Program-made: the position numbers and the translations under genes | Sequence record: OP172789 | Reading direction: 5' to 3' (one strand) | DNA length: 64,000 nt | From: Escherichia phage ECO71P1 | Part shown: piece after piece, positions 1 to 64,000 of the stretch | Layout: the number at the start of each line of letters is the position of its first letter | Numbering within the stretch: position 1 is the stretch's first letter | Notes under the pieces: generated by a model | Seen by the model: only the letters and a program-made list of their open reading frames with translations | What the model was told of the DNA's origin: nothing | Databases searched by the model: none

Positions 1-110
1 TCGTCGAGTAGCTCTACCAGTGCCTTTGCATCGTCGAGTGTTAACACCACTGGCCGCGACCCATTAACGGCTTGTCGAAGCTTCCGCGCGGCAACGGCCA
101 ACTTAGTCAT
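1..110 (-). CDS. hypothetical protein, 5' part only (gene continues beyond the left edge of the window)
   Basis: ATG at 108-110 on minus strand with upstream AAGGG; open frame runs to window edge. Confidence 0.3.
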   Translation of the reverse strand, partial: MTKLAVAARKLRQAVNGSRPVVLTLDDAKALVELLD

Positions 111-121
111 CGGACCCTTGT

Positions 122-514
122 TCACGGCAACTCCTTATTCATTGGCGTAATGGAAAGCACCTTCACTTCAGTGATGTCACGGTTATATTCGCGCTTGATT
201 TGTAGAATCTGGGATTGGATGCGCGCGATAAAGTGCCACGTTATGCCTTCCTTAACGTTAATCCAGGCCGCAAGCTGCATCGAGTCAATGTCACTTCTCA
301 ATGTCATCGGTCTGTAAACAGCACTTGGTGCACCACTAGCACCGTAAGCCAGTTGCGCGTCATAAGCTGAATACTTGAATGACACCAGGAACATTCTTTC
401 TTCAAGTTGACTCTCGCTATTAGGATTCTTATCACAATTAGCCATATGCTGCACGAACTCTTCATGCGGAAGATGCATCACATCGTGGCAATACGGACAA
501 CGTTTCATTCTCAT
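122..514 (-). CDS. hypothetical early protein with Cys/His cluster (CPYCH...H..C), possible zinc-binding
   Basis: ORF track 130 aa; start overlaps stop of upstream gene (ATGA). Confidence 0.45.
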   Translation of the reverse strand: MRMKRCPYCHDVMHLPHEEFVQHMANCDKNPNSESQLEERMFLVSFKYSAYDAQLAYGASGAPSAVYRPMTLRSDIDSMQLAAWINVKEGITWHFIARIQSQILQIKREYNRDITEVKVLSITPMNKELP

Positions 515-747
515 TTTGCATACTCCATAGCATATTGCTGCAGCTTAAACGCAGCCTTTTGTAATTGTTTGTGGCGTTCAAATAACGTCTCACGCTTTTC
601 AGCATGGCAATCGGCGCGAAGCATTGTTATGGCAACGCTTGACATAGCATTCAATAAAAACTGAAAACGAGACACCATGCGCAGCTCATTGCGCTTGTTG
701 AAAGACAGCTTACCCAGCGCGGCATTCATAATTGCACCTCGACACAC
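511..747 (-). CDS. hypothetical protein
   Basis: 78 aa ORF in tight minus-strand array; 4-nt overlap with neighbour. Confidence 0.4.
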   Translation of the reverse strand: MCRGAIMNAALGKLSFNKRNELRMVSRFQFLLNAMSSVAITMLRADCHAEKRETLFERHKQLQKAAFKLQQYAMEYAK

Positions 748-1043
748 GATTCACTAGCCTTGAATCCCCAGCCTTCCAGACCGACTTCGCCGCAGCAGCG
801 CACCTTTGCCCAACCAGTCATGAGCCATTGGCGATACTTTTCGAAGTATGTTGGCTTTTCTGAATAACAATGAACAAGGCCGTCGTCATCAATGGCCACG
901 TAACGCGTCCAAGGCGCAACGGGTACAACTACGTCGGGGTGCGACTCTGGCCAAGGCTTGATGTGTACAGCTGTGTTCAAGTCTACGTTTAACACGCTGC
1001 CTAACCGCTCGTCTTGTTCCTGGTCAATGCCTAAGTAAATCAT
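726..1043 (-). CDS. hypothetical protein
   Basis: 105 aa ORF, co-oriented with neighbours. Confidence 0.4.
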   Translation of the reverse strand: MIYLGIDQEQDERLGSVLNVDLNTAVHIKPWPESHPDVVVPVAPWTRYVAIDDDGLVHCYSEKPTYFEKYRQWLMTGWAKVRCCGEVGLEGWGFKASESCVEVQL

Positions 1044-1127
1044 AATTCACCTCGCTTGTTAGTCTTGATGAACAGAGTATAAGTATTGATAAAAGAAAAG
1101 GCAAGCATTTAGCTCACCTTTTGATAT

Positions 1128-1460
1128 TCATTTTACATAGTGGAGTAGGTCAATCTCTATCTCGTGCCTTGTCCTTGTTATCTTTGTATCGCCCGTCCGG
1201 TGGGTGACTTGAGAGAAGAAAGAGTCTTTGTGAGCACATCTTTCAAACATCACGCTGGCAAATCTGCAGCCGCATATTGCATCAAGTTTTGCTCCGTTAG
1301 ACAAAAGGTTGAATGTCAATACAGTGTTATCCATCCTTGCATTTTGCTTGATGCAGGACTTTAAGAAGGCGTAAGAATCGGCAAATGATTTGTGCCTTTT
1401 ACAAATATCTTTAACCTTTTCACGTTCATACGCGGCGAGTATCTGATCACGGGTCATCAC
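1128..1460 (-). CDS. hypothetical protein
   Basis: 110 aa ORF. Confidence 0.45.
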   Translation of the reverse strand: MMTRDQILAAYEREKVKDICKRHKSFADSYAFLKSCIKQNARMDNTVLTFNLLSNGAKLDAICGCRFASVMFERCAHKDSFFSQVTHRTGDTKITRTRHEIEIDLLHYVK

Positions 1461-1696
1461 TGCACCTCTGTTATTCCGGTTATACGAACGATGACTGTGT
1501 CATCCAAATTAAACTGCTGCCGCGCAACGCGCTTGATGTCGTCCTTAAGGTCCGCAATCAACTCCCTTGTTAACACTGTACGCTCTGAGACGCCATATTG
1601 CACGTCAAAGGTATACTCGCCATAAAACACCGCGCCATTGGGAAGTTGCACGACATAGAATGCCATATACATGGCGTTGATATAATCTTCCATTAT
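1457..1696 (-). CDS. hypothetical protein (start trimmed to internal Met MEDYINAM)
   Basis: Longest ORF 1457-1807 overlaps next gene by 115 nt; internal ATG gives 4-nt ATGA overlap. Confidence 0.35.
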   Translation of the reverse strand: MMEDYINAMYMAFYVVQLPNGAVFYGEYTFDVQYGVSERTVLTRELIADLKDDIKRVARQQFNLDDTVIVRITGITEVQ

Positions 1697-2040
1697 ACAT
1701 TCTCCACGGGTCGACGAATGAGTTTGCGTAATCCTTCGGGCCAGACCTTCTTGATGACGGCCTTTGCTGGGCTGGATGAAAGCTTCTTCAGCTTCAATAG
1801 GACACAACCTTCATCATCGTTCGGTTGCACCTGGATAACGACTCGCGCTTGTCGGTCAATGACCATGACATCCCCAACGCGAATGTCTTTCACCAACACG
1901 CCCATCTCCTTCGTGCCGGATACGCCAATCACGTGGTCGCAACGGACTCGCGACGGTAGCAACGTGCCGCCTTCAGCCATCTCACGCACACGCTTCTTAA
2001 TCTCTGCGCCATACAGCGTTTCATCTTTAACATGAGCCAT
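1693..2040 (-). CDS. hypothetical protein (start trimmed to MAHVKDE)
   Basis: Internal ATG preceded by AAGG; avoids overlap with upstream gene. Confidence 0.4.
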   Translation of the reverse strand: MAHVKDETLYGAEIKKRVREMAEGGTLLPSRVRCDHVIGVSGTKEMGVLVKDIRVGDVMVIDRQARVVIQVQPNDDEGCVLLKLKKLSSSPAKAVIKKVWPEGLRKLIRRPVENV

Positions 2041-2521
2041 GTTCAAGTACCTTATAGAATTTAGTGGTGAATCGCTCGTCGCCATAGTAGCGATAATTTC
2101 CGCCACCTGTGTGATCAAACCTTACCCATTGAATTAAAGTCTGGTCAGCGTCATGCGACACGTGAATCACTCGGCCATTAACAGGAATTGCACCCTCTTC
2201 CGCGTCCTTGCTTATGATTGAGTCGCCGTTCTTTATGTCAAATATGTCAATTGGCTTAAGGCGCGGCTTGTTATCAGCATAAGTTTTAATAGGTAAGGCA
2301 ATGCAGCGAGAATTTGAATGATACACAGGTCTTGTTGCACCCTTGACGTTGCGCTTCAGCAATTCATCAATGGCATAGTCAACATCATCACTTTCAAACT
2401 CCTTCATGATGAAGTCTCTTACCCTTACACGAAGGTTGACATCTGCTTCTGCACGTCTCAATGCGTGTAAAATTTCTTTAGCTTCTTCTTTGTTTAACAT
2501 TAAAGGGCGATGAATGATCAT
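2027..2521 (-). CDS. hypothetical protein
   Basis: 164 aa ORF. Confidence 0.45.
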   Translation of the reverse strand: MIIHRPLMLNKEEAKEILHALRRAEADVNLRVRVRDFIMKEFESDDVDYAIDELLKRNVKGATRPVYHSNSRCIALPIKTYADNKPRLKPIDIFDIKNGDSIISKDAEEGAIPVNGRVIHVSHDADQTLIQWVRFDHTGGGNYRYYGDERFTTKFYKVLEHGSC

Positions 2522-2675
2522 AATTAACCTCTGATTTGTGACACAAAACGTTTATAATGTTCTTTGGCTAAGACGCGTGCACGCTCTTTCGTATGGCCAC
2601 TGGCTTCGAGTACGCGACGAAGCTGCTTGATTGCGTCCGCTTTACTAATCTTGTTATCGCTAAATTGATATTTAT

Positions 2676-2897
2676 TCATGCTTCACAAGCCGCCTTAATT
2701 TGACGTGGAGTAACGATGACCACTTCACCAACCAGTGACTTGTCGTCTTCTTTTACCGTGTCGATTCGAACGCGGTAATGATTGCGACCGCGCGAATCAG
2801 TAAGGTATTGATCCAGCTCAAGGATGGTGCCTGCGCGCATATTCTGTCCTGACATCCAACGGATGCGGTCCCCAGCCTTAAGAGTTTTCTTTCTCAT
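2676..2897 (-). CDS. hypothetical small protein (start trimmed to MRKKTLKAGD)
   Basis: Longest ORF would overlap the next gene extensively; internal start fits gene packing. Confidence 0.35.
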   Translation of the reverse strand: MRKKTLKAGDRIRWMSGQNMRAGTILELDQYLTDSRGRNHYRVRIDTVKEDDKSLVGEVVIVTPRQIKAACEA

Positions 2898-2904
2898 CTT
2901 CAAC

Positions 2905-3183
2905 TCACTTATAGTATTTAAACATAGCCGCGCAAAAGTCTTGCATGGCATTCTTAATCTGCTTCTTGAACAACGGGTCATGCATCGTTTCAACATTCGT
3001 CTTAATCCGAACGTGACCGATAACATCAAACGCAGTCGCTGGCATCGGCTCATAGATTTCATGATCGTTCAAGATTATATCTAGTTTTGACTCAGAAATC
3101 ACGGGATAATTCTTTCCAGCAGTAAACTGGTCATCAATCGATGACGTGCACTTGACAAAGAACACTTTGTATGTAGTAATCAT
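2905..3183 (-). CDS. hypothetical protein
   Basis: 92 aa ORF. Confidence 0.4.
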   Translation of the reverse strand: MITTYKVFFVKCTSSIDDQFTAGKNYPVISESKLDIILNDHEIYEPMPATAFDVIGHVRIKTNVETMHDPLFKKQIKNAMQDFCAAMFKYYK

Positions 3184-3389
3184 AGTGAGTCCTTCGGGCC
3201 GCAGTAGCGCCCGTCCAGGTAGCGGTCATATTGGATTAAGGCGAACGTTTTCAACGAAAGGTTACGGCGCTTAAACAGGTGACCCGTTGATGGATTCTGC
3301 TCGTGCGCCGTTGGATAAAGGCGTGACAGGTAGTGGATGAGGACTTGTAAAGCTCTACGTTGCTTTGTTATTCTCCCTTGTGTATTCAT
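3180..3389 (-). CDS. hypothetical protein
   Basis: 69 aa ORF, ATGA overlap with downstream gene. Confidence 0.3.
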   Translation of the reverse strand: MNTQGRITKQRRALQVLIHYLSRLYPTAHEQNPSTGHLFKRRNLSLKTFALIQYDRYLDGRYCGPKDSL

Positions 3390-3618
3390 GGCTGAATCTA
3401 CCCTCTGTCAATATCCGGTCGTGGATGACTATACCAGTGCAGCGCAGTCGGTTGGCATTGCTTCGCGCCTTTGCTGCTTGATGAGGATTGAACAAGCCAA
3501 ACAAACTAGCCTTAAAAGCAAACTGGTAATATTTGATTAAGGTACTAAGTGCTAACTCAATCCTGTCTAAATTAATCATAATATCACCTCGTCAGAAAAG
3601 CAAATATTTTGATGATAA

Positions 3619-4266
3619 TTATCCTGTGGCCTGCATATTGCGTACATACTTCTGCTCTAATGAATAGATGAAGTCGGCGACCGTCAATCCTTTGGTGTGC
3701 CACTCATACATTGTGTAGCCTGTATTCAGGAAATAGCCGCGCACCTTGTCCATTGCTTCAGATTCCTCCATGGAAGCCATCAGCGCGGCGACGTTATCAT
3801 AAGAAGGCACAAATCCCTTCTTGCGTAGCGCATTGCGCAAATCTTTAGTTCTGAATCCAATCTTGCACAGGTCATCACGGCCCGTTGAAGATGCAACCTT
3901 CGGCAGCGCAAGGAACTCTTTGAGGAACATTGAGATGTTCAAGTCGCCTGCGTCATCAAGCTTCTGGAGTCGGTTGCGACCGCGACCCTTGAATTCACTC
4001 GCACGAGGGTGAGCACCAAAGCAGTGCGCCCCTTCCAGTTTTGGGTCGATGATCATCAAATCTTTGCCTACGCGCAATTCAACATAGTAAAGGTATGTCT
4101 CATCGATAAGCTTCGTGCGCTTACAGTTGATGGAGTCCTTATCGTAACCAAAACCACGCAACACGGTTGAAATCATCCGGTTCATTTCTTCTCCGTGAAC
4201 GTCACTCTCTTTGTTCAGTTCACCAAGATGTTGAAAGAATTTAGCGATGTTGATTGCTTTATTCAT
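3619..4266 (-). CDS. hypothetical protein
   Basis: 215 aa ORF immediately upstream of the helicase gene, stop/start adjacent. Confidence 0.5.
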   Translation of the reverse strand: MNKAINIAKFFQHLGELNKESDVHGEEMNRMISTVLRGFGYDKDSINCKRTKLIDETYLYYVELRVGKDLMIIDPKLEGAHCFGAHPRASEFKGRGRNRLQKLDDAGDLNISMFLKEFLALPKVASSTGRDDLCKIGFRTKDLRNALRKKGFVPSYDNVAALMASMEESEAMDKVRGYFLNTGYTMYEWHTKGLTVADFIYSLEQKYVRNMQATG

Positions 4267-5936
4267 CAGAATTCATCCTTATCTCTTCCTAAAGAACGTT
4301 TGCGTTCAATAACCTTCTTCAAGAATTCAATATCTTCAGGGTCAGATTCATCGCGGATAAGATACGCCAAAATAGTCATCAGGTCAGAAATGTATTCCCC
4401 TGCTTCATTCTTAATCAGCGGCGTAAAGTAACCACGCTGGTTGCGATAGGTTGCAGGCTCAAATCCAAGCTTCGACATGTGCGGCGCAAGGGTACGTGAG
4501 AAAGGCGACTTGCCGCACTTAGCTCTGAAGCCCATAGCGATTGCACCACTAGTGATGTGCCAGCGTCCGCTGTGATGTCGGTCATAAGGCGCGGTGATGA
4601 CGACTTCAACAAGGTCGTTGTCGACCATCTCGTCACGGATAACGCCGCGAGCACGTTCCATTTCGTTCTTGCTGAACTCAGTAAGCATGCGAGACGTTTC
4701 ACCAACAAAAGCGTTGTAACCTGCTTCGCCGTGCTTCTCCATCCACGCAGCACACTCAGCCATCAACTGCCAAACATCTTCTTTCAAAGTGGAAAGGTCA
4801 GCTTGGAAGTCTTTCGACCAGTTCGGTTGCCCGTCCTTGTCTGCGAGTTGGCCAACAAAGATAGGATACACACGACGGTTGCCCGTATCGTCACGCTGCA
4901 TGCCTGCGTATTCGTTGCCGTCCATGATAGCAATCCACTGGCGCGGTTTAACCTGCGTATCTTCAAATTTGAAGTCCAGGTCATCTTCCGTCTTAGTCAG
5001 GAATGCTTTCATGTTTTCGATGTCGGCCTTTTTAAAGCCTGTCATCTCGCCAACGTTCGCGATAATTGAGCGACCCGTAATAGCTCGCAAGAACGGGTTG
5101 AAGTTCTGCGCGGCCAAGTTCAACGGAATCGGTGTTGCGTGGCGGTCGTTCATAATAGCTTCGCAAAGCAGCTTACTGAAATAACTCTTCCCTGCGTTCT
5201 GGCCGCCGATGAGCGCAATGGAGATTGGCGCTTGACAGCCAGGGTTGGTCAGGCGGTTATAGAGCGATAGCCAAAAATACACACCGATTTGTCGGTTTAA
5301 CTCTGTATCGAACGGTCGGAATAGCTCGATAAGGTATTTCTCAATGCGCGCAGTACCGTCCCATTCAGGCAGCTTCTTGTAGAAGAAGTCCATCAGGTCG
5401 TCGCGCTGATAACGCATGGCCCATTCCTTATAGGATTGAGCGACCTGACGTGAGTTTGGGTTGGACAGGCCTGCTGCGTCGACAGCGGCAACTATCTCTG
5501 TGACTTCCAACGTCCGGTCGGTGAATGTTTCTCCGCGATGGTCGACTAAGCGTCCACGAAAAGTATCTTTGTGAGGGAATGGGACAATGCCGCTTCCCTT
5601 ATCAAACAACGCGTCGAAAACCGCATAACGGTTCATGTCACTCGTCCGGTCCGCCTGAAGAACAAAATCATCTTTCGTCGGTTTGTAGTGAGGGAACTTG
5701 ATTACCTGAAGTGAGGCGAGCAAACGTGCTCTTTCAACCAAGTCTTCTTCACCGTAGCACTCCATGCGCTCTGCATCTTTCTCAACAGCCTTATGCTGGA
5801 GGCTGATTTTAGCTCTGGTGCCTTGCTGCTCTGCCGCTTGCATCTCTTCTGAAACACCAGCGTCTTGAATTTCGTCAAAGGTTGCACCAAATTCATCACC
5901 TGTATCCTCTGGAAGATTGTCATGTTCAATTGACAT
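4266..5936 (-). CDS. P-loop NTPase, putative replicative helicase (D5 / primase-C-terminal-like)
   Basis: Walker A-like IALIGGQNAGKSYFSKLL in 556 aa protein; strong AGGAGG RBS before ATG at 5936. Confidence 0.55.
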   Translation of the reverse strand: MSIEHDNLPEDTGDEFGATFDEIQDAGVSEEMQAAEQQGTRAKISLQHKAVEKDAERMECYGEEDLVERARLLASLQVIKFPHYKPTKDDFVLQADRTSDMNRYAVFDALFDKGSGIVPFPHKDTFRGRLVDHRGETFTDRTLEVTEIVAAVDAAGLSNPNSRQVAQSYKEWAMRYQRDDLMDFFYKKLPEWDGTARIEKYLIELFRPFDTELNRQIGVYFWLSLYNRLTNPGCQAPISIALIGGQNAGKSYFSKLLCEAIMNDRHATPIPLNLAAQNFNPFLRAITGRSIIANVGEMTGFKKADIENMKAFLTKTEDDLDFKFEDTQVKPRQWIAIMDGNEYAGMQRDDTGNRRVYPIFVGQLADKDGQPNWSKDFQADLSTLKEDVWQLMAECAAWMEKHGEAGYNAFVGETSRMLTEFSKNEMERARGVIRDEMVDNDLVEVVITAPYDRHHSGRWHITSGAIAMGFRAKCGKSPFSRTLAPHMSKLGFEPATYRNQRGYFTPLIKNEAGEYISDLMTILAYLIRDESDPEDIEFLKKVIERKRSLGRDKDEF

Positions 5937-7245: not shown

Positions 7246-8328
7246 CTATTTTATGCCACCTGCGCGACGATTTATCATATCAAGTTGATTCTCAATATAA
7301 GGCATTACTACTGCTTCGACAAAAGCGGTCCATCCTTTCTTGCCTTCCCCTTTCCGGTGACAGTCGTGAGCGCAACCGAAAACGAATTCATGTTCAGCGC
7401 CAGGGATTGGGCCGCGAAAATAAGCGCCGTATGGGTCGCCGTTGGTGTGCTCTTCACCCCAAGGACAGATGATGCGGCATTTACCTGACATGTTTTCAAC
7501 CACATCGCCATCGGACCCTTCGCCCATCTTATTGCGCGCAAGGATTTGCTGGGCTATCTTATACCAAACAGCGTCATATTTGTATTCGTCAACGTCGATT
7601 TGAATTTCACGCTTTTGCGGCATAACGACGTGGAAACCGAAGGCTTGGCAAATCTCTTCGATTGTGTAGCGCAAAGAATAGTCTGCATGAACAAGTCGGC
7701 AGCGGAACGGGTCGCCGTTCTCATCGACATATTTATAGGGGCCGTCGTGAGTCACACGCTTATTGTTGATGCACCCAGGAACACGACCCACGCGTGTCAC
7801 ATCTTTAATCGTATTGTCGCCGCCCTTCTTGAGTACCATGTTTACGAAAGACCCAAGGAATGCTTTGAACTGAATAAGATGGTCAATCGGTTCTTTAAAG
7901 AAGTACCACAGCTGATGGTTGTTCGGTGAAGTCTCAACAATGACGGTGGGCTTCAGGCGCTCGAAAAAGAATTCCAAATCTAAATCGCCCTTTGACCCTT
8001 TACCGTGTCCGATGTCGTCGACCATCATCGCCATGCCATGACCGAAAGCCGATTCCGTGCGCCAGTATCGCATCTCGCCTGTCTTTGGGTTGGGAGACTT
8101 ACGCATTGAACTTATGCAGGCGTAACCGTTCTGATGTTGCATCAGCGGCTTGCCAAGCTTCCAAGGCTTAGGCCAGAAGCTGCTGTTAATCTTTTTGCCG
8201 CGCTCGTCGGTCTGCACCGTTGCTTCAGGCGCAAACACTGTCATGACGCGTTCATCTTCTGGAATGCCTCTTTGGAGTTCCGTCAAAAACTCTTCGATTA
8301 TTTTTGCTTCTTCTCTTAAACTAGCCAT
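7246..8328 (-). CDS. putative primase-like replication protein (AEP/prim-pol-like DxD motif plus C-terminal Cys/His cluster)
   Basis: MMVDDIGHG acidic motif, C-terminal CPWGEEH...GCAHDCH; GAAGGAAAG RBS; sits beside helicase gene. Confidence 0.4.
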   Translation of the reverse strand: MASLREEAKIIEEFLTELQRGIPEDERVMTVFAPEATVQTDERGKKINSSFWPKPWKLGKPLMQHQNGYACISSMRKSPNPKTGEMRYWRTESAFGHGMAMMVDDIGHGKGSKGDLDLEFFFERLKPTVIVETSPNNHQLWYFFKEPIDHLIQFKAFLGSFVNMVLKKGGDNTIKDVTRVGRVPGCINNKRVTHDGPYKYVDENGDPFRCRLVHADYSLRYTIEEICQAFGFHVVMPQKREIQIDVDEYKYDAVWYKIAQQILARNKMGEGSDGDVVENMSGKCRIICPWGEEHTNGDPYGAYFRGPIPGAEHEFVFGCAHDCHRKGEGKKGWTAFVEAVVMPYIENQLDMINRRAGGIK

Positions 8329-46316: not shown

Positions 46317-47735
46317 TTATTCCCCTTTCAACCAAGCTTCAAATGCTTCGTCAGTTGCTGCAGAATCCGCAGCGGCCTTTTGTTTTGCGACTACACGCTG
46401 TTTTTGACCGTGTTCAACGCCGCGCAGATAATTATCCACCACGTCAAACTCAGCACCATCAACGCACTTCAAGCCTAACTTTTTAGCGCCATATTTCGCT
46501 ACGGACTTGGAGTCCATAGTTGCATGATCAAAGGCACCAACAACTTTAGACAGGCGCTGGTAGAGGCTATTCTTACGAGCAGAATCAGCGTAGAAAGCAG
46601 CAACTGCTGAATCAGATGCCATTGAGTGTTCCCCTTTTGCTGGACCTGGCGACGCTTTCGCCGCTTTTGTCGGTTTGTCATCTTTTTCGACCGAAGCCCC
46701 CTTTACGTTGCTGTTTTGCAGGCCGCTAACCACATCTTCAGCTTTGTCGCAAGGTGATACATCTTCAGCCTTGACTTCAACTTCTTCGTCTTTGACTTCG
46801 GCTTCAACTTCTTCTTCATCACCTACCGCGCCACCTTTAAGTTTTGCAATAAGTGCTTCGATTTGGCTGATCAGTTGCGGAAGCTCGCCGCCAGCGTGAG
46901 ATTCAGTTTCAACTTCAAACTTCTCTTCACCTTCTGGAGTCTCTTCAGCTTCTGCTTTAACTTCTGGATCAACCATCACTTCTTCACGTTCTTCGGTTGA
47001 ATCCTTCTCTTCTGCTTTCACTTCAACTTCGTCCTGATGAGCAGCTTCGGTGCTCTCTTCATTCAGAAATTGTTCGAGCGCAGGGATCAGTGATTTCAGC
47101 TGTTCAACAGCATTATCACGCGCTTTACCTTTTAACGGTTTTGGCATGTCTAAATCCTCGTTGGATGGTGTTACAGTCGTCAAACAAAGATGGTCAAAGC
47201 AACGACCATCCAGCACCCGTGCACCTGGTACTCGACCAACGTCCACGAGAGCAATGTGGTTGCCGCGAAGAGTTGTCTGTACCACTTCATACGGCTGCCC
47301 GTCAAACTCTCCAGACTGTATGATGAATTCACAGTCATAGCCCAAAGACAAGTCAACCTTTCCAGAATCGATGGCCTTCTTCAGACGACGGCTAAAAACT
47401 TTAAGGTCGCCGCGCATCCATGGCTTGTCATAATAAACATTGCCAGTTAGAACGCCATCAACGCCATACTCTTCGGGTGCTGTGTTATCCTCATCACCTT
47501 CGAATCCAGAAAGCATTTCGTGATTGTCGATGAAAGGGATATTTTTGAATGAATCTATCGCTTCGGGGTCTTTCACCGCTGACTCTGGGCGATAAACTTT
47601 TACGATGCGATTCGGATCACCATCAAGTCCAACCTGACCTGCAGAATAATCAAAAATGCCAAATGACGAAATGGGACAACCCACAATCGTCAAGAATCCA
47701 TTTTTGTCAATTTCGCGTGCCGTTTGCATTCGCAT
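46317..47735 (-). CDS. prohead scaffold/protease-like protein with long acidic Glu-rich linker
   Basis: 472 aa, central EEVEAEVKDEEVEVKAED-type acidic region; GAGGGTGG RBS. Confidence 0.45.
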   Translation of the reverse strand: MRMQTAREIDKNGFLTIVGCPISSFGIFDYSAGQVGLDGDPNRIVKVYRPESAVKDPEAIDSFKNIPFIDNHEMLSGFEGDEDNTAPEEYGVDGVLTGNVYYDKPWMRGDLKVFSRRLKKAIDSGKVDLSLGYDCEFIIQSGEFDGQPYEVVQTTLRGNHIALVDVGRVPGARVLDGRCFDHLCLTTVTPSNEDLDMPKPLKGKARDNAVEQLKSLIPALEQFLNEESTEAAHQDEVEVKAEEKDSTEEREEVMVDPEVKAEAEETPEGEEKFEVETESHAGGELPQLISQIEALIAKLKGGAVGDEEEVEAEVKDEEVEVKAEDVSPCDKAEDVVSGLQNSNVKGASVEKDDKPTKAAKASPGPAKGEHSMASDSAVAAFYADSARKNSLYQRLSKVVGAFDHATMDSKSVAKYGAKKLGLKCVDGAEFDVVDNYLRGVEHGQKQRVVAKQKAAADSAATDEAFEAWLKGE

Positions 47736-47845
47736 CCACCCTCAAATAAGTATTGTGTATTATATCTAATGAAAAAAACTTAGGCAAACAATAATTATGG
47801 TTTGAATATGTATAACAACCGATATAGCCGCGCCTTAATTAGTGT

Positions 47846-48107
47846 GATACGGATGATACGGATAAAATGAGGCGTATTTTTATCCGTATCGGTGTATAAG
47901 CCGCGCTATCACTGGTGTGCTACGGATGATACGGATGATACGGATACTTTTCATATATAAGAGTTTATAAAAAAATAAAATTAAATTAGATATATAATTT
48001 TAAATTAATTTATTTGAATTCCTATAAAGTATCGCGGCAACGCGTATCATCCGTATCATCCGTAAGATTCTTTTGAAAACAACTACTTACTTGATACGGA
48101 TGATACG
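47846..48107. repeat. iteron cluster: direct and inverted copies of TACGGATGATACG flanking an AT-rich core
   Basis: 47846-47863, 47921-47947 (triple), inverted copy 48043-48064, 48093-48107; AT-rich 47948-48030. Confidence 0.7.
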
Positions 48108-48151
48108 TCATTATACGCGTAAAATCCTGCGGCAATCCATTGCCAGGCGAT

Positions 48152-48289
48152 TCAGTGAATATTAAAAAGCACTCCAGCAACTAAAACGCCAATCAGCATC
48201 GAGTCGTAAACAGCCCATTTCCAAGAAAGCAAAGAGTTGCAATTAATATTTCGCACTTTAACGTAACGTGACTGAATAATCTTTTGCAT
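48152..48289 (-). CDS. small hydrophobic protein (45 aa)
   Basis: Hand translation MQKIIQSRYVKVRNINCNSLLSWKWAVYDSMLIGVLVAGVLFNIH; AAAGAGGAAG RBS. Confidence 0.3.
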   Translation of the reverse strand: MQKIIQSRYVKVRNINCNSLLSWKWAVYDSMLIGVLVAGVLFNIH

Positions 48290-48299
48290 AACTTCCTCT

Positions 48300-49220
48300 T
48301 TAGTTCAACTTAATTGCGGTGATCTGTCCGTAAACGGTAGATGTCAATTCGTCTGTGCATTGATAGTTTAGATACACGTTGCCAGGCGCGGCAAGAGTAA
48401 TTATCTTTGTTGGAATATTGCCGCCGAAACGACCTGCAGCCCGAATGCCAGCAGACATCGTGAATGCATCATCCGTAATATCTGAATTACTTGTTGACAA
48501 TTTTACTGTAATTCCGGTATTCGCTTGAACTCCTTCTGTTGCGACAGTCAACTGACTTGCTGTCACAAGCCATTTCCCTGCAGGCAGGTTTAATGTTGCC
48601 AGATTCACCAGAGTTGTCGGAGGATTGCTTACACTATTGCTTGTGTTTTGCACATTGCTTGCAGCAGCATTAAGAACTCCAGAACCATCAATTGATAGTG
48701 TCGCTCCTACTTTTACGCCACCCAAGGTTGATGCTGATGCAATCGGTAACGAGTATTGAGTAACACTAATTGTACCGTCACCTGCAACACTTATGCCACT
48801 TCCTATCTTGACGCCGCCGAGAACAGAAGCCGTTGCCGCTGGTAACGTGTATTGGTTGCCGCTGGATTTGACTACCTTAACGGCGACAGCATTCTTGGAC
48901 CCTCCAGACTCCATGCCTATAATCACCGCTTCTCCAAAAGCGATGGTGATTGTAGATGCAGTTAAACCAGTCTGCACGTCTGTTATGTCCATTTTGGGAA
49001 CTGAAAGTGTCAGATTCGGCTTGCTGGTAGAATCGCCATCATTACCGATCATAAAGAATTGGCCGACTGAATTGTATCCAGATGCCAATGGCGGACTCAA
49101 TGGAACAATCAAATTTTTATCGGATGTAAATTCTGAAACAATCGCCAAACCGTTCGCATATACAGCAGGTAATACTGGCGTTTGTCCAGATATAGGAAAC
49201 GTGCTGATTGGTATCGTCAT
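48300..49220 (-). CDS. fibre-repeat protein in the head module (LPxAxASxLGGVKxG repeats)
   Basis: QYTLPAATASVLGGVKIG and QYSLPIASASTLGGVKVG tandem motifs; GAGG RBS before internal ATG. Confidence 0.4.
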   Translation of the reverse strand: MTIPISTFPISGQTPVLPAVYANGLAIVSEFTSDKNLIVPLSPPLASGYNSVGQFFMIGNDGDSTSKPNLTLSVPKMDITDVQTGLTASTITIAFGEAVIIGMESGGSKNAVAVKVVKSSGNQYTLPAATASVLGGVKIGSGISVAGDGTISVTQYSLPIASASTLGGVKVGATLSIDGSGVLNAAASNVQNTSNSVSNPPTTLVNLATLNLPAGKWLVTASQLTVATEGVQANTGITVKLSTSNSDITDDAFTMSAGIRAAGRFGGNIPTKIITLAAPGNVYLNYQCTDELTSTVYGQITAIKLN

Positions 49221-49227
49221 AATGACC

Positions 49228-50079
49228 TCAAATGATTGGTATTTTCCTGCACTTGCAGTGTATTGCCCATCCAGGAGGACCGATGTCACCCTTTTTGAAC
49301 TTCAATTCTCCGCCAACTTCCCATAGGCGCTTGTCATCAAGTTTAAATCTCATTCCGTCGACGTGTTCATGAGAGATTCGCGGCTCCTTTCCTGCTCCTG
49401 AGTGCGCCCATTCAAATTCTTCAACTCCATTCTGGCGCATCCTTTCATCGCTTAGAACGCAATACAATTTGCTTGTCTGGTCTTTAGCGATTAAGTCGAC
49501 TCTCTTTGCAGAGAAGTGTTTTACGTTTCGCAGCGCCGCCTGAATGCCTGACGTGCCTTGCTGGGCTGGGTCGGGCGAAGTCAGCGAAAGCATTACTGCT
49601 TCGTACACTCTGTTGTGAATATCCTCGCCGACCTTAGTCACTAGAGTCGTGTTAAACGTCTCGCTTGTTCTAAGAGTGTTCTCAACGAATTTGTTATATG
49701 TGGCCTTTGGCGCTTCTATGCCTGCGGACTTAAGGCTGGCGAATGTAGCAGAAGTAGCACCCTTTTCGACCGATTTGATAAAATCAGCGGCAATCTTTGA
49801 CCCAACACGAGCAAACGCCCTTGCCCATTTCAGCTGCAGACGTTTCATAAGAGTTTGGAATGTTGAATCAGCAGAGTCTTGCGCAAAGAACTTCTGCACC
49901 TGCTTCTTTTCAAGCCACTCTGAAATTCCTGCCTGATAGTCATCAATCATCGCATAGCAAAGACCTTTCATCTCACGACGGTAGGCCATTGCAATAGCGT
50001 TTGATGGGATTATCGGACTGCCGCGCCCGATTCTATCGGGTGAGCGGCGTTCACGTTTTTTCGAAGCTTTAAAAGCCAT
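49228..50079 (-). CDS. head morphogenesis protein (Mu F / SPP1 gp7-like)
   Basis: Position directly after portal; start trimmed to MAFKASKK. Confidence 0.45.
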   Translation of the reverse strand: MAFKASKKRERRSPDRIGRGSPIIPSNAIAMAYRREMKGLCYAMIDDYQAGISEWLEKKQVQKFFAQDSADSTFQTLMKRLQLKWARAFARVGSKIAADFIKSVEKGATSATFASLKSAGIEAPKATYNKFVENTLRTSETFNTTLVTKVGEDIHNRVYEAVMLSLTSPDPAQQGTSGIQAALRNVKHFSAKRVDLIAKDQTSKLYCVLSDERMRQNGVEEFEWAHSGAGKEPRISHEHVDGMRFKLDDKRLWEVGGELKFKKGDIGPPGWAIHCKCRKIPII

Positions 50080-60015: not shown

Positions 60016-60605
60016 GCCTGCCGCGCAGGAGTGTACTGAAAATTTACTGTGGGTACAAAATAGTACGGTACTGTCTGGGACTTTTTCTTTGAAAAGTTAG
60101 TGGACCAAATGTGTCGTATTTTGATTAGTGTACTGCAAATTTCATCAAGTACCAAAACGCACCAAAAGACCCATGCCCTAAAAACCACACGAACGCAATA
60201 ATCAATCGCCGTTACAGTTTCCAGCGTTACAATTCGAAAGAGAATGATTCGACGCATAATAACATGAAGCATAATGATTCAAAAGCGAATGATTGCGTGT
60301 AGGATAATATCGGTGGGGATTATTCTAGATGTCGGTAATTTCGCATGCGTACTATTTTCGGGCGAAGGGTCGGCATATTTCTCGTTTTAGTTCGGAACGA
60401 AGGGAAAGTTTTGCGCCTTTATAAAACAACGACTTACGCGACCCTCCCTAACGGTCCGATATAGGTGTCTATATAAAACAACGACTTACGCGATGTTCTC
60501 CATTTAACGTAATACCTGTTATGCGAACTAAGGCGCATCTAGACGAAGATTATGCGACGACGAAGGGAAGGATAAAGGAGTTTTCTCGTAGGAGCGCATC
60601 GAGAT

Positions 60606-60637
60606 AGGGACGAAGAAAAGCCGCGACTAAGCGCGGC
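60606..60637 (-). terminator. rho-independent terminator downstream of the 60658-60948 gene
   Basis: GCCGCG-ACTAA-GCGCGGC hairpin; TTTTCTT follows on minus strand. Confidence 0.5.
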
Positions 60638-60657
60638 CTATTAGTAACGGAAGGGTA

Positions 60658-60948
60658 TTATAAGGAGGCGATTTTAAAATAAGTTACTTCGCCGCCGAGT
60701 TGCGGTACAGCGATATATTCGCCGCCGATTTCGGTAATCGTATAGACGAAGCCGTTAATCGTTACGCGGTAGGATACTACGTCCTCGTCGCGATACTTGT
60801 AAAGGTCGAGGAAGTTGATCGGTTCATAAATAGACTCGATAGTTGCGTCTACGTTAGAGAGATAAACGCTCTCTAAAGTCTCGCCAAATACGTTAGAGTT
60901 TTCGGAAGTCTCGACGCGAGCGGAACGGATAGCGGCTAAAGTAATCAT
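60658..60948 (-). CDS. small acidic protein, island paralogue 1
   Basis: 96 aa; paralogous to 61758-62042 product; AGGAG RBS; CG-rich codon usage. Confidence 0.5.
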   Translation of the reverse strand: MITLAAIRSARVETSENSNVFGETLESVYLSNVDATIESIYEPINFLDLYKYRDEDVVSYRVTINGFVYTITEIGGEYIAVPQLGGEVTYFKIASL

Positions 60949-61054
60949 AATATTCTCCTAGTTAGTCGGGAGGGTAGCGACCTATTCGCTACCTCACCCC
61001 TCTCGATATAAATAAGTATAATCTTAGTGTACGGATAAGTAAAGCACTTTTTTT
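60949..61054 (-). promoter_or_regulatory. promoter-leader cassette copy 1 (TTTACT / TATACT sigma70-like boxes, leader stem-loop, anti-SD CTCCC)
   Basis: Aligns with copies at 61537-61618 and 61654-61757. Confidence 0.5.
60973..60993 (-). ncRNA. 5' leader stem-loop (transcript GGTAGCG-AATAGGT-CGCTACC)
   Basis: Covaries with 61713-61733 stem while loop AATAGGT is conserved. Confidence 0.45.
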
Positions 61055-61063
61055 CGTTTTTTT

Positions 61064-61216
61064 CTATTTATTTAAAGCGCGTCTTCCAAGTTCGACGACC
61101 CAAGCGGCGGCATCTTCCGCCTTATTAAATTCGTATAGATGCTTCTTATCTTCGAAGACGTAAAATAAAATACGTCCGAACTTATTAGCCTTCGCGCTTA
61201 ACTCGATAGTTTTCAT
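61064..61216 (-). CDS. small hypothetical protein (50 aa)
   Basis: Hand translation MKTIELSAKANKFGRILFYVFEDKKHLYEFNKAEDAAAWVVELGRRALNK; AAGGAG RBS. Confidence 0.3.
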   Translation of the reverse strand: MKTIELSAKANKFGRILFYVFEDKKHLYEFNKAEDAAAWVVELGRRALNK

Positions 61217-61233
61217 CTTCTACTCCTTTTTCG

Positions 61234-61536
61234 TTATTTTGCGATAAAATATTTATAAGCCTTATCGCCTTCTACGTCGATATACTCGACGATAATTAAC
61301 GCTTCGCCGCGCGGCGTAACCGACTCGATAAGGGTAACGGCTTCGTCGTCGGTCTTCGCGAAGCGGATGGCGCTACGTTCGGCGTACTTTATATCGTCGA
61401 AGGATAATCCGACGAAGGCGACGGCGCGCGCTTTAATAATTCCCTTTTCGAGTTCCGCGTTAACGGCGGCGATAAGAGAGCGAACGGTTAAGCGGTCTTC
61501 GTCGTAAGTAAGAATAGAAGAAATTAAAGTAGCCAT
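61234..61536 (-). CDS. small acidic hypothetical protein
   Basis: 100 aa; AGGAG RBS; leader shares cassette with the paralogue genes. Confidence 0.45.
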   Translation of the reverse strand: MATLISSILTYDEDRLTVRSLIAAVNAELEKGIIKARAVAFVGLSFDDIKYAERSAIRFAKTDDEAVTLIESVTPRGEALIIVEYIDVEGDKAYKYFIAK

Positions 61537-61618
61537 AATAAAACTCCTAATGCTAGTAAGGGAGAACGCCTCCCGTCTCGATATAAATAAGTATACGCGA
61601 GTGTACGAAGAAGTAAAG
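61537..61618 (-). promoter_or_regulatory. promoter-leader cassette copy 2 (drives the 61234-61536 gene)
   Basis: Imperfect inverted repeat with copy 3 around a 35-bp spacer. Confidence 0.45.
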
Positions 61619-61653
61619 AAAAAAGATAAAATAATTTATCGCATTTTTATCGA

Positions 61654-61757
61654 AAAAGTGCTTTACTTTTTTCTACACTATATTATAATGTACTCATATC
61701 GGGACGGGATGAGTTAACGAATAGGTCGTTAACGCCTCTCCCAACTAGGAGTTTAAA
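61654..61757 (+). promoter_or_regulatory. promoter-leader cassette copy 3 (TTTACT-N17-TATTATAAT, leader stem-loop, anti-SD, AGGAG)
   Basis: Strong -10 at 61681-61689; hairpin 61713-61733; SD 61747-61751. Confidence 0.5.
61713..61733 (+). ncRNA. 5' leader stem-loop (GTTAACG-AATAGGT-CGTTAAC)
   Basis: Compensatory stem changes relative to the 60973-60993 hairpin. Confidence 0.45.
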
Positions 61758-62042
61758 ATGGCTATTCTTAACGTTTCTTCTATCCGTAACGCTATCGTCG
61801 AGAACTACGGCGTAAAACAAAATTTATCCGAAGTCTACGCCGCGAACGTAGACCAAACTATCGAAGCGGGTGGGGTAACGGTCGCCGAGGCTTTTAAACT
61901 TTACGCGGCGTTACCGGAATCGGACCGCGAAGCCTTCGAAGTAAACGTTAACGGATACTTCTTCGAAGCGGTCGAAATCGGTAATATTTTACTCGTTATG
62001 GGCGAAGAAGAATTTGAGACCTTCTCCCTCGTCGAAGCGTAA
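61758..62042 (+). CDS. small acidic protein, island paralogue 2
   Basis: 94 aa; shared MxxLxxxSIRxAxVExxxxxxxLxxVYxxNVDxTIE pattern with paralogue 1. Confidence 0.5.
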   Translation: MAILNVSSIRNAIVENYGVKQNLSEVYAANVDQTIEAGGVTVAEAFKLYAALPESDREAFEVNVNGYFFEAVEIGNILLVMGEEEFETFSLVEA

Positions 62043-62122
62043 GAGAGGATTTTTAGAGCGTCGTGCGCGGCGCTTTAATAAAATTCTTTCGCGCCTAGCG
62101 CCCTAACAAATAGGAGTTTATT

Positions 62123-62749
62123 ATGGTTAGCTTAAATCGCTTCTCGACTAGCGGCGACGTTATCGCAACTAAGACCGCCGACCTCGTTGCATTCTATAAT
62201 GCAAATTCCGGCTCAAAACCGATTAAGAAGTTTGCGGACCGCCGGACCGCCGAGACTCGCGTAATCGCGTTAATCGAGTCCTTAAACGCGCTCGATGAGC
62301 CGTCCAACGAATCGCCCATCCCCGACGCGAAGCCGCGCGAGGAAGTGCCCAGCGATGTAAAAACGCATAAGGCGCGTGCGGTCGTTAAAAAGGCCGAGCC
62401 GACTCAGGAAGAACTCGACGCGATGACCGACGAAGAGTATGAAGCCTTCGTTAAAAGCGGCCTAAACGATAGTGCAAATTGCGTAGTGCAAAATGGAACT
62501 CCTTCTCATCGCCGTTCGAATAGCGAAGGTATTGCAAAAAGTTGGGATAACAAGGAAGTAGCGCAAAAGCGTCTCACCCGTAACGCCGTTATGGTCGAGG
62601 GTGTAGGAGAGTTCAAATCGGTCCGCGTAGCGTTCGCCGCGCTGGGCTTACCGGATAGCAAGCACATTCGCTTCCGTATGAAGCTCAAGGAAGCTGGGCG
62701 CTTGAACTTTGAGTTCGGCAACAAGTCCTACACCTTCCAGATCATCTAA
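62123..62749 (+). CDS. hypothetical protein (contains two in-frame copies of the TAGTGCAAA repeat)
   Basis: 208 aa; AGGAG RBS; CG-rich codon usage. Confidence 0.45.
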   Translation: MVSLNRFSTSGDVIATKTADLVAFYNANSGSKPIKKFADRRTAETRVIALIESLNALDEPSNESPIPDAKPREEVPSDVKTHKARAVVKKAEPTQEELDAMTDEEYEAFVKSGLNDSANCVVQNGTPSHRRSNSEGIAKSWDNKEVAQKRLTRNAVMVEGVGEFKSVRVAFAALGLPDSKHIRFRMKLKEAGRLNFEFGNKSYTFQII

Positions 62750-62755
62750 TCGAAT

Positions 62756-62778
62756 GGCGGCCCTTCGGGGTCGCTTTT
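62756..62778 (+). terminator. rho-independent terminator with UUCG tetraloop
   Basis: GCGGCCC-TTCG-GGGTCGC followed by TTTTC. Confidence 0.55.
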
Positions 62779-62799
62779 CATAGTGCAAATTGGTGGCTT

Positions 62800-63063
62800 A
62801 TGAATACGCTTATTCTCATCGCTACGTTGTCCATCGGAAGTGGTCGCACCTTATCCCTTTATGATCATAGTGCAAATTGCGCTTACCCAACGCGAGTTGC
62901 GGCGATAGTTAATAGTGCAAATCGAATGCTATTCGAGACTTGTTGGCGGGTTGATAACGAGAAAGGGCGCATCGTCTTAGGTTATAGTGCAAATCTGCTG
63001 GTGGAGTCGTTCGACTGGACGGCGGAAGGTCGTAAATTGTTACGTAAAGTGACTAAAAGATGA
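62800..63063 (+). CDS. questionable ORF spanning three repeat copies
   Basis: 87 aa ORF whose SAN tripeptides are encoded by the repeat; may be non-coding. Confidence 0.2.
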   Translation: MNTLILIATLSIGSGRTLSLYDHSANCAYPTRVAAIVNSANRMLFETCWRVDNEKGRIVLGYSANLLVESFDWTAEGRKLLRKVTKR

Positions 63064-63124
63064 CTTATAATAATACACTTTCTAACGCGTTTATGGTTGT
63101 AACCTTCCCCGTCGTATTACCGAT

Positions 63125-63165
63125 GGCCCTAGAAGTGGAGAAAATGTGTTCTAGGGCCGTTTTAT
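63125..63165. terminator. hairpin between converging transcription units
   Basis: GGCCCTAG ... CTAGGGCC 8-bp perfect stem, followed by GTTTTA. Confidence 0.4.
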
Positions 63166-63177
63166 AGTGCAAATTGG

Positions 63178-63650
63178 CTAGTGGCGGGAGAATTGCTCAC
63201 CCTCTTTGGCAGCCTCTCCAAAATCCTTGTAGAAATCGTCCATGGAACGGCCCATTTTACTATTGCCGTTTTCATCAATCATCGTGATGCCGTAGATGAT
63301 ATTCAGTTCACGAATGGCATTAAGCTTGGCTGAAGCCGCGACTTCTGGATCACGCACAAGCTTCACTAAATTGTGGATGGAACTCTTTACGCTCCACAAT
63401 TCCTTCAATGGCATCTCTTCCATACGCTTCTTGTAGCGCATCTTGTAGTACGGATTGCGTTGCGTGCACAGGATTCGCTGGCCAGTGTAGTTATCGGTCG
63501 CAACCTCCATGCCAAATACTAGTGCAAAAGCTGCGCGCATGTCATGGCCCTGAATAACAAGGTCAATGAACTCATCGAATAATGCCTGATTATGCTCTGC
63601 AAATCGTGGGTCTTCAAAGTCTTCAGGCATTGCTACATAATCTTGACTCA
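63178..63650 (-). CDS. hypothetical protein (start set to MSQDYVAMPEDF; start codon lies inside a repeat copy)
   Basis: ORF track extends via TTG through the repeat array; ATG start favoured. Confidence 0.4.
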
Positions 63651-64000
63651 TAGTGCAAATCCCATAGTGCAAATTAATAGTGTGAATTATACAATGATTG
63701 AACATTATATTCAAGTGCAGATTGATGTTCAAATTGGCTGTAAACGTACACAAATCATAGTGCTAAATGAATATCGGACCGTGGTGCGTGGTGTACTGTT
63801 TGATACGTATAAAAGAAATCCATCCCTTTCGCCGCTTGTTATGCAAATCAATGACTTAGCCGCTGCTGGCTGGTTGAAGCGTATCATGACGTATCATCCG
63901 TATTGCCGCAAGTCTTTGTTTTTACTTATATCTTACGGATAATACGTATAAATATAAGTTTAGTATAAGTATGAGGATGTAGAAAAAATTAATTTAAATT

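Follow-up and report, generated by a model that had tools for sequence, protein, structure and literature searches.

Two paralogous iteron loci in Escherichia phage ECO71P1: putative replication origins, one of which would hold the packaging cut

Escherichia phage ECO71P1 carries two paralogous iteron loci, named here locus A and locus B, that are ~16 kb apart in the stretch of 64,000 nucleotides from sequence record OP172789 that was analysed (the window). In each of them, oppositely oriented sets of a short iteron flank an AT-rich core, and in close relatives of this phage the genome starts within the core of locus B. With a confidence slightly better than even, we read these loci as two Rep-type origins of replication, with the packaging cut embedded in the one at locus B (oriB). 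According to this reading, both origins would fire, and the iterons would be recognized by a Rep-like helicase-initiator encoded by the phage rather than by the small terminase subunit, TerS.

The PB1-like phages (Pbunavirus, Wifcevirus and their relatives) are among those most used for therapy; to our knowledge, neither their origins nor their packaging signals have been described. A terminal repeat is already annotated in relatives of ECO71P1; new with respect to the papers searched are the two iteron loci, their connection with a Rep1-like initiator and the fact that the genome end falls at a dyad centre, and our literature search found no paper joining 'Pbunavirus' and 'iteron'. Should the reading be correct, the two origins and the packaging cut would have exact coordinates, the starting points of the genome records of PB1-like phages would be accounted for, and there would be a rule for rebooting or engineering these genomes, i.e., to retain the two loci and the two boundaries of the repeat. 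Two phenomena would also become tractable: an origin that shares its dyad with a pac site, and a change from headful packaging to exact repeats, or the reverse, with homologous terminases.

The right edge of the window, 63880-64000, had been singled out in a preliminary description as a second copy of the iteron motif followed by an AT-rich tract. Both strings quoted there lie where they were placed, GCGTATCATGACGTATCATCCGTATT at 63879-63905 and CTTACGGATAATACGTATAAAT at 63931-63952, and the adjoining tract is AT-rich (84% A+T over 63940-64000). The box drawn in that description takes in the left half of locus B only. The sequence past base 64000 was taken from phage RCIP0363 (97.9% identity to the window in 62500-64000); there, the rest of the AT core is followed by GCGTATCATCCGTATCATCCGTA and by the outer arm TACGTCATTATACGC, the continuation reading AATTTAAAATGGAGTTAATTGTTTTTTTCAAAGTTGTATAAAGTATAGCGGCGACGCGTATCATCCGTATCATCCGTATG…TACGTCATTATACGCTTAAA. 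Coding DNA beyond the edge, together with the loss of the similarity on alignment, had been named as the outcome that would speak against two related iteron loci. The opposite was found: the continuation is the other half of the locus and not coding DNA, and loci A and B are colinear, with 76% identity over ~300 nt and one 42-nt block at 95% in our own blastn searches and alignment. Locus B is a dyad element of ~300 bp, paralogous to locus A, that the end of the window cuts within its AT core. Its parts inside the window are the following.

63879-63905: outer arm on the terminal-repeat side, GCGTATCATGACGTATCATCCGTATT
63931-63951: inner arm, CTTACGGATAATACGTATAAA, with one TACGGAT and a degenerate TACGTAT
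63949-64000: AT-rich core, cut by the window end; assigned from its A+T content and the genome starts of relatives

Locus A spans 47845-48120 and lies within the head-gene cluster, 111 nt upstream of the gene for the head maturation protease (46317-47735, minus strand). It comprises five parts.

47845-47890: outer left arm, two TACGGAT followed by the inverted TTTTATCCGTATC
47918-47946: inner left arm, three tandem 9-bp units, TACGGATGA
47947-48039: AT-rich core, 86% A+T, the top AT stretch of the genome
48040-48066: inner right arm, GCGTATCATCCGTATCATCCGTAAG, two units in the orientation opposite to the left arm
48092-48120: outer right arm, GATACGGATGATACGTCATTATACGCG

The iteron unit in both loci has the heptamer core ATCCGTA and a period of 9 bp, and its sets are oppositely oriented across an AT-rich tract of ~90-100 bp. 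In locus A, a perfect 22-nt inverted repeat is formed by TACGGATGATACGGATGATACG at 47921-47942 and its complement at 48043-48064, with the arms 100 nt apart. In locus B, the outer arm GCGTATCATGACGTATCATCCGTATT is the inverted copy of TACGTCATTATACGC, found ~260 nt away beyond the window (L002 5375-5394 and 5654-5673; 20 nt long, 90% complementary, 259 nt apart), and the inner arm CTTACGGATAATACGTATAAA is inverted relative to ATCCGTATCATCCGTA, also beyond the window (L002 5432-5450 and 5565-5583; 19 nt long, 84% complementary, 114 nt apart); one exact and one degenerate unit are present on one side and two on the other. When the extension from the relative is added, no stretch of the ~67.5-kb genome is more AT-rich than the core of A, and that of B ranks second, whether 60, 80 or 100 nt are considered. 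The motif is also over-represented in the window. With at most one mismatch, ATCATCCGTA is present 13 times in the window versus 3.15 ± 1.65 expected, a number that none of 100 shuffles reached, and its exact copies are confined to 47848-48104, 48468 and 63893. Likewise, ATCCGTA was found 19 times (5.1 expected), nine of them in locus A and two in 63896-63940. A third copy of the locus was considered, given that BLAST returned three to four places per genome; our own blastn traced all of them back to parts of loci A and B.

Some additional observations were made around both loci. The exact ATCATCCGTA at 48468-48477 (plus strand) is isolated, ~350 nt to the right of locus A and inside a large ORF on the minus strand (48300-49289). 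A 45-aa ORF (48152-48289, minus strand) adjoins locus A, and a 52-aa ORF (63729-63887, minus strand), annotated in relatives as Mansfield gp001 and Bas100_0091, overlaps the outer arm of locus B; these two ORFs could be spurious or small real genes. On the unique side of locus B, a non-coding tract of 250-300 nt (L002 5700-5950) shows a GC skew of -0.4 to -0.7 and an AT skew of +0.3 to +0.4, and in Pa193, KKP 3709, L020 and L021, GT-rich and CA-rich tracts are, by eye, mirrored across locus B. The heptamer GCGGCAA occurs 45 times in the window (12.5 ± 3.4 expected; e.g., 48034, 48129 and 63903), mostly on the plus strand in 26.8-36.8 kb and mostly on the minus strand in 37.8-47.3 kb. It has copies at homologous positions of loci A and B, and motifs of the CGCGGCA type recur in the loci of Kyle and Pa193; GCGGCAA/CGCGGC was rejected as a locus-specific element because the heptamer is over-represented throughout the genome.

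The vicinity of a genome terminus had been one of the meanings suggested for the locus at the edge, and the records of relatives bear this out. At least four Wifcevirus records (Mansfield, WFH, Ro157lw and ECP_WGS_SA1) begin 10-11 nt past base 64000, and in SP13 the terS gene is at the same offset from the start of the record as in Mansfield. The start of Mansfield is the left boundary of a direct terminal repeat of 3673 bp (1-3673) called with PhageTerm (PMC6753283). The record of WFH, which comes from a different laboratory, contains twice an exact repeat of 3701 bp (0 mismatches) whose two boundaries are identical to those of Mansfield, the right one being …GGGCATGGGTCTTT/TGGTGCG (the slash marks the boundary); terminal repeats of about 3.7 kb have been reported (PMC6563267). 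Pantoea phage Kyle has an exact repeat of 3603 bp, again with 0 mismatches, that also begins in the AT core of its locus B; its second boundary is homologous to that of WFH and Mansfield, and total lengths differ by up to 1.9 kb. The distance from the terminus to the dyad centre is 5.0 bp in WFH and 6.0 bp in Kyle. Taken together, the starts of the relatives and the repeat shared by WFH and Mansfield place the left genome end beside terS, at 5 bp from the centre of the locus B dyad. Relatives that are 97-98% identical to ECO71P1 in this region are the basis on which the following terminus and repeat are proposed for ECO71P1 itself.

63181-63651, minus strand: terS, small terminase of 157 aa (phmmer E 9e-33 to PDB 7uxe; annotation of Mansfield)
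between virtual positions 64010 and 64011: putative left genome end, …TTAATTTAAAAT/GGAGTT, from the starts of relatives
60165-64000: putative direct terminal repeat, the part inside the window, with its other boundary …CGCACCA/AAAGACCCATGCCC at 60164/60165

In coordinates of the window, this repeat would extend from 60165 to 10 nt past 64000, i.e., ~3.8 kb (~3846 bp). Since the exact boundaries are common to WFH and Mansfield, both ends are defined by sequence and not by a headful mechanism; a headful origin of the repeat was also discarded because two phages that were sequenced independently have the same second boundary and Kyle has a homologous one. Termination by headful with permuted DNA, as in pac-type phages, is not observed in WFH, Mansfield or Kyle, and exact direct repeats at both ends, as in T7, are present in WFH and Kyle and would be present in ECO71P1. 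Around the cut, Wifcevirus phages keep a block TAAAATGGAGTTAATT that is distinct from the iterons and particular to locus B. The fixed end of Pbunavirus also falls between the iteron arms of locus B, as does the genome start of Ab27, but it is ~60 bp from the best dyad centre. Members of this genus have been reported as headful packagers (PMC4482731, PMC12390725), and reports on their genome ends are contradictory (PMC12390725).

The two loci are conserved beyond the closest relatives. For the region 62500-64000 there are 28 matching phage records, with 90-98% identity, and around 47300-48600 the identity of the matches reaches 99.7%. Nearly all the matching records belong to Wifcevirus phages of Escherichia or Shigella, e.g., WFH, WFC, ECML-117, FEC19, Mansfield and Bas99-101, this genus being formed by virulent myophages of 66-72 kb that are distantly related to the PB1-like phages of Pseudomonas. 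ECO71P1 itself belongs to Wifcevirus. The pair of loci is also present in Kylevirus (Pantoea phage Kyle), Pbunavirus (Pa193) and Myosmarvirus (Serratia phage KKP 3709), and in these three genera one locus is located at the junction of rep and terS and the other upstream of the head protease. Its presence in four genera indicates that the loci have been kept since before these genera split. The iteron itself is different in each genus: ATCCGTA in Wifcevirus, AATAACC in Kylevirus, AATTTGG in Pbunavirus and ACTTTTC in Myosmarvirus. Several copies of each one are present in both loci of its own genus, and it is essentially absent elsewhere (one stray copy in two cells of the tabulated counts); in two metagenomic relatives (L020 and L021), locus B contains the further iterons ATCCGCAAGA and GTTGCGG. 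An iteron that is particular to a genus and common to its two loci suggests that a sequence-specific protein encoded by the phage reads both. A host reader, DnaA or another, was discarded, given that the iterons differ between phages of related hosts; a common host protein is an unlikely reader of sequences that differ between E. coli and Pantoea phages.

These comparisons also bear on the possibility that locus B is a decaying, functionless duplicate of locus A, or the reverse, and that the terminus is there by coincidence. The units of locus B are fewer and more degenerate than those of locus A, and its arm on the unique side has diverged within Wifcevirus, while locus A, core included, is 97% identical across the subgroups of this genus that were compared. 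However, the ATCCGTA units and the TAAAATGGAGTTAATT block persist in spite of this divergence, both loci have been kept in four genera with their iteron changing in concert, and the terminus is at the same offset of 5-6 bp from the dyad centre in two genera. We regard a functionless duplicate as highly improbable.

A candidate for the protein that reads the iterons, and a primase that could act with it, are encoded at the other end of the window.

4269-5936, minus strand: Rep-like SF3 (VapE-family) helicase-initiator, 556 aa (Pfam VapE-like, 1.6e-28)
7249-8328, minus strand: RepB-type DNA primase, 360 aa (Pfam RepB_primase, 1.6e-36)

The only solved structure related to this Rep by sequence is 7pds, that of SaPI1 Rep1 on DNA (phmmer E 4e-11). 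An AlphaFold2 model obtained from 44 homologues has a mean pLDDT of 87, and in a Foldseek search with it the top match, far ahead of the others, was again 7pds (E 3e-16, ~480 aligned columns for a target of 451-457 residues), the next ones being at 1e-7. As judged from this model, Rep is a full-length structural homologue of SaPI Rep1, and a C-terminal winged-helix domain is placed at residues ~436-505, with residues 459-504 predicted to adopt the helix-strand-helix-helix-hairpin topology of a winged helix. Among the folded parts of the Rep family, this region has diverged most, with a mean pairwise identity of 25% versus 56% for the ATPase, and Rep is a candidate reader of the iterons. On the circular map, ~8 kb separate rep from locus B and ~24-26 kb separate it from locus A. 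In Wifcevirus, ~7.5 kb of small genes are inserted between rep and locus B; in Pa193, the two metagenomic relatives and an island of Caballeronia, locus B comes directly after rep or after rep and one more gene. Locus A never adjoins rep in the genomes compared.

The inverted iterons around the most AT-rich tracts, the helicase similar to SaPI Rep1 and the ancestral order pri-rep-locus B-terS lead to the reading of the loci as origins. In the mechanism that we propose, Rep hexamers would be positioned on each side of the core, with their C-terminal winged helices on the iterons; the AT core would melt, the RepB-type primase would prime, and the Pol III-type polymerase that the genome carries would take over. 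The terminase would also cut the core of locus B 5 bp from the dyad centre, giving rise to the left end of virion DNA and the left boundary of the repeat, and packaging would probably proceed toward terS until it reached the second sequence-defined boundary, one genome and ~3.8 kb later. Locus A would remain uncut. The GC skew counts against this reading, as it gives no origin signal at either locus; as an origin marker it was considered uninformative, given that the cumulative skew tracks the direction of transcription. In a study of Pbunavirus genomes, putative origins were placed at GC-skew minima inside replication genes (PMC12390725). The loci do not have the design of a plasmid or lambda-type iteron origin, with iterons of 17-22 bp in helical phase and DnaA boxes TTATCCACA: their units are contiguous at a 9-bp period, and the closest likeness to a DnaA box is TTATCCGTA, which matches 7/9 positions.

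The preliminary description had also proposed that the two loci could mark paired regulatory sites. In this sense, the arrays might be operators that time the promoters downstream of them, one for the protease-capsid operon at locus A and the other for terS at locus B. Both loci are directly upstream, in the same orientation, of strong sigma-70-like promoters that face late genes.

47759-47787, minus strand: sigma-70-like promoter TTGCCT-17-TATAAT, between locus A and the gene for the head maturation protease
63686-63714, minus strand: sigma-70-like promoter TTGAAT-17-TATAAT, between locus B and terS (L002 5215-5187)

Nevertheless, promoter-like sites were found only in these flanks and not inside either AT core, no candidate for a regulator was found adjoining the loci, and scans with Pfam, PHROG and NCBIfam revealed no DNA-binding candidate among the small ORFs of the terminal repeat. 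For an operator, an AT core of ~100 nt between inverted arrays would be superfluous, and the terminus would be left unexplained. We therefore consider paired regulation improbable as the main role of the loci; the architecture, the Rep1-like protein and the order pri-rep-locus B-terS point instead to origins, and an operator role would be consistent with origins if it were a side effect. No known RNA families were found in the window.

A more serious alternative, which we still find rather unlikely, is that both loci are pac-type arrays bound by TerS, and that the large terminase, TerL, cuts at locus B between the arms. TerS would in this case also bind locus A, which would not be cut and would serve for titration, for regulation of the head operon or for a two-site synapsis. 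There are precedents for these arrangements: G1P of SPP1 binds pacL and pacR, sets of hexamers flank the cleavage region of P1 pac, and a two-site synapsis has been proposed for T4 gp16 (gene 16/19). As in a pac-type site, the cut is located inside locus B in relatives, the start being in the core in Mansfield, WFH and Kyle, and it lies between the iteron arms in Wifcevirus and Kylevirus. In addition, TerL is SPP1-like and terS adjoins locus B invariably, even in a chromosomal island; in ECO71P1, the start of terS is 228 nt from locus B and the gene is transcribed away from it. The N-terminal region of TerS is variable between genera in an alignment of the four (the TerS of Kyle is 42-44% identical), and its specificity could thus co-vary with the iterons; this variability cannot decide between Rep and TerS as the reader, and the alignment was discarded as a discriminator. 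The same happened with the phyletic pattern, because both proteins always accompany the iteron locus: downstream of every Rep homologue inspected, also of the one from a bacterial chromosome, an iteron locus comes first and a TerS homologue next, so that terS flanks locus B as consistently as rep does and synteny does not separate the candidate readers. On the other hand, the array of locus A is more perfect and better conserved than that of locus B, yet it has neither a terminus nor a nearby terS. The conserved block at the cut, TAAAATGGAGTTAATT, is specific to locus B and distinct from the iterons, which suggests that what the terminase reads may be the core and not the iterons. The inverted sets around the most AT-rich DNA and the Rep1-like initiator fit in detail the published design of an origin. 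Finally, the decameric TerS of Pbunavirus E217, which is the structural homologue of the ECO71P1 TerS and whose structure is 7uxe, showed no appreciable DNA binding in vitro (PMC9611059).

Within the reading of the loci as origins, a bolder version, which we put forward tentatively and hold to be unlikely, is that the origin and the packaging site are one element, with a double hexamer of Rep opening the core and the terminase cutting at the opened dyad centre. Replication started at oriB would pass through the neighbouring 3.8 kb, and each packaged genome would obtain in this way the second terminal repeat that it needs; locus A would be a pure origin. The cassette rep-ori/pac-terS would carry the specificity of replication and packaging as a portable unit, which satellite-like islands such as that of Caballeronia would also use. 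If the second site-specific cut were lost or gained, the lineage would switch between exact repeats (Wifcevirus and Kylevirus) and headful packaging (Pbunavirus).

Among the known systems that were compared, the origins of the Staphylococcus aureus pathogenicity islands (SaPIs) appear, by analogy, to be the most similar. These origins contain 6-12 short iterons located just downstream of rep, and their AT-rich centre separates two sets of at least two iterons that face opposite ways; SaPI Reps are self-loading helicase-initiators whose C-terminal winged helix recognizes the iterons, one hexamer being thought to load on each side (PMC9371898). Loci A and B both have two sets of short iterons in opposite orientation around an AT-rich centre; the protein encoded by 4269-5936 is a VapE-like helicase with a predicted C-terminal winged helix, a separate primase is present, and the order pri-rep-ori is kept in relatives of ECO71P1. 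Still, the loci would not be plain members of this class. ECO71P1 is a virulent myophage of 68 kb and SaPI a satellite; its two copies are unlinked and neither adjoins rep, locus B being right downstream of this gene, or one gene further on, in Pa193, L020, L021 and L023, the Caballeronia island; its iteron has a core of 7 nt and a 9-bp period, in contrast with the 5-6 nt of SaPI; and one copy would hold the packaging cut and the genome end.

Other phages share some of these features. In the satellite phage P4, ori and crr are 4.5 kb apart and contain the same 8-bp iterons, bound by the alpha primase-helicase. The likeness to ECO71P1 consists in two separated cis loci with common iterons and in an SF3 helicase with a winged helix as the reader (putative in ECO71P1); nevertheless, alpha is a fused primase-helicase, ori and crr differ in structure, and neither is a genome end, given that P4 uses cos. 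In Bacillus phage SPP1, the pac site (pacL-pacC-pacR) read by G1P and the origins oriL and oriR read by G38P are separate elements. This phage has a related terminase, a cleavage region between two arms just upstream of terS, and two distant loci with the same initiator-binding repeats beside AT-rich DNA, but its genomes are permuted by headful packaging, in contrast with the exact terminal repeats of 3.7-3.8 kb in Wifcevirus. The hexamers of P1 pac are Dam sites and its cleavage is controlled by methylation; sets of a short motif are present on both sides of a central cleavage region, but P1 pac has no AT-rich centre, second copy or Rep-type initiator. T7 has a direct terminal repeat of 160 bp, and an origin-like element near the boundary of the repeat has been implicated in processing. 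It shares with ECO71P1 exact, sequence-defined repeat boundaries (putative in ECO71P1) with short repeat arrays adjoining them; it differs in the length of the repeat (160 bp versus 3.7-3.8 kb), the lack of an iteron dyad, an unrelated terminase and the lack of phage RNA polymerase promoters in common with ECO71P1.

The island of Caballeronia sp. AZ10_KS36 (L023; JALQDQ010000018.1, 173877-183604) includes an integrase, a Rep homologue (P0079), a gap of 640 nt, a TerS homologue (26% identity, E 1e-17) and a resolvase. In the 640-nt gap, GTAACTC/GAGTTAC iterons flank a central region on both sides. From its gene content, this island looks like a satellite built on the same cassette of rep, iteron locus and terS.

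Several short repeats were noticed around the second boundary of the putative terminal repeat of ECO71P1. At 60164/60165, AATGATT is present three times just inside the repeat (60245-60300), and AGTGTACTG(a/c)AAATTT twice just outside it (60029-60050 and 60126-60146); the motifs CTAATCA and CAGTACACTAATCA are conserved at the same boundary of Kyle. The short repeats at 60029-60300 are probably the recognition site for the terminating cut. The repeat in the window (~3846 bp) is longer than those of Mansfield (3673 bp) and WFH (3701 bp), and in the region 61064-61216 the window and RCIP0363 have an extra small ORF.
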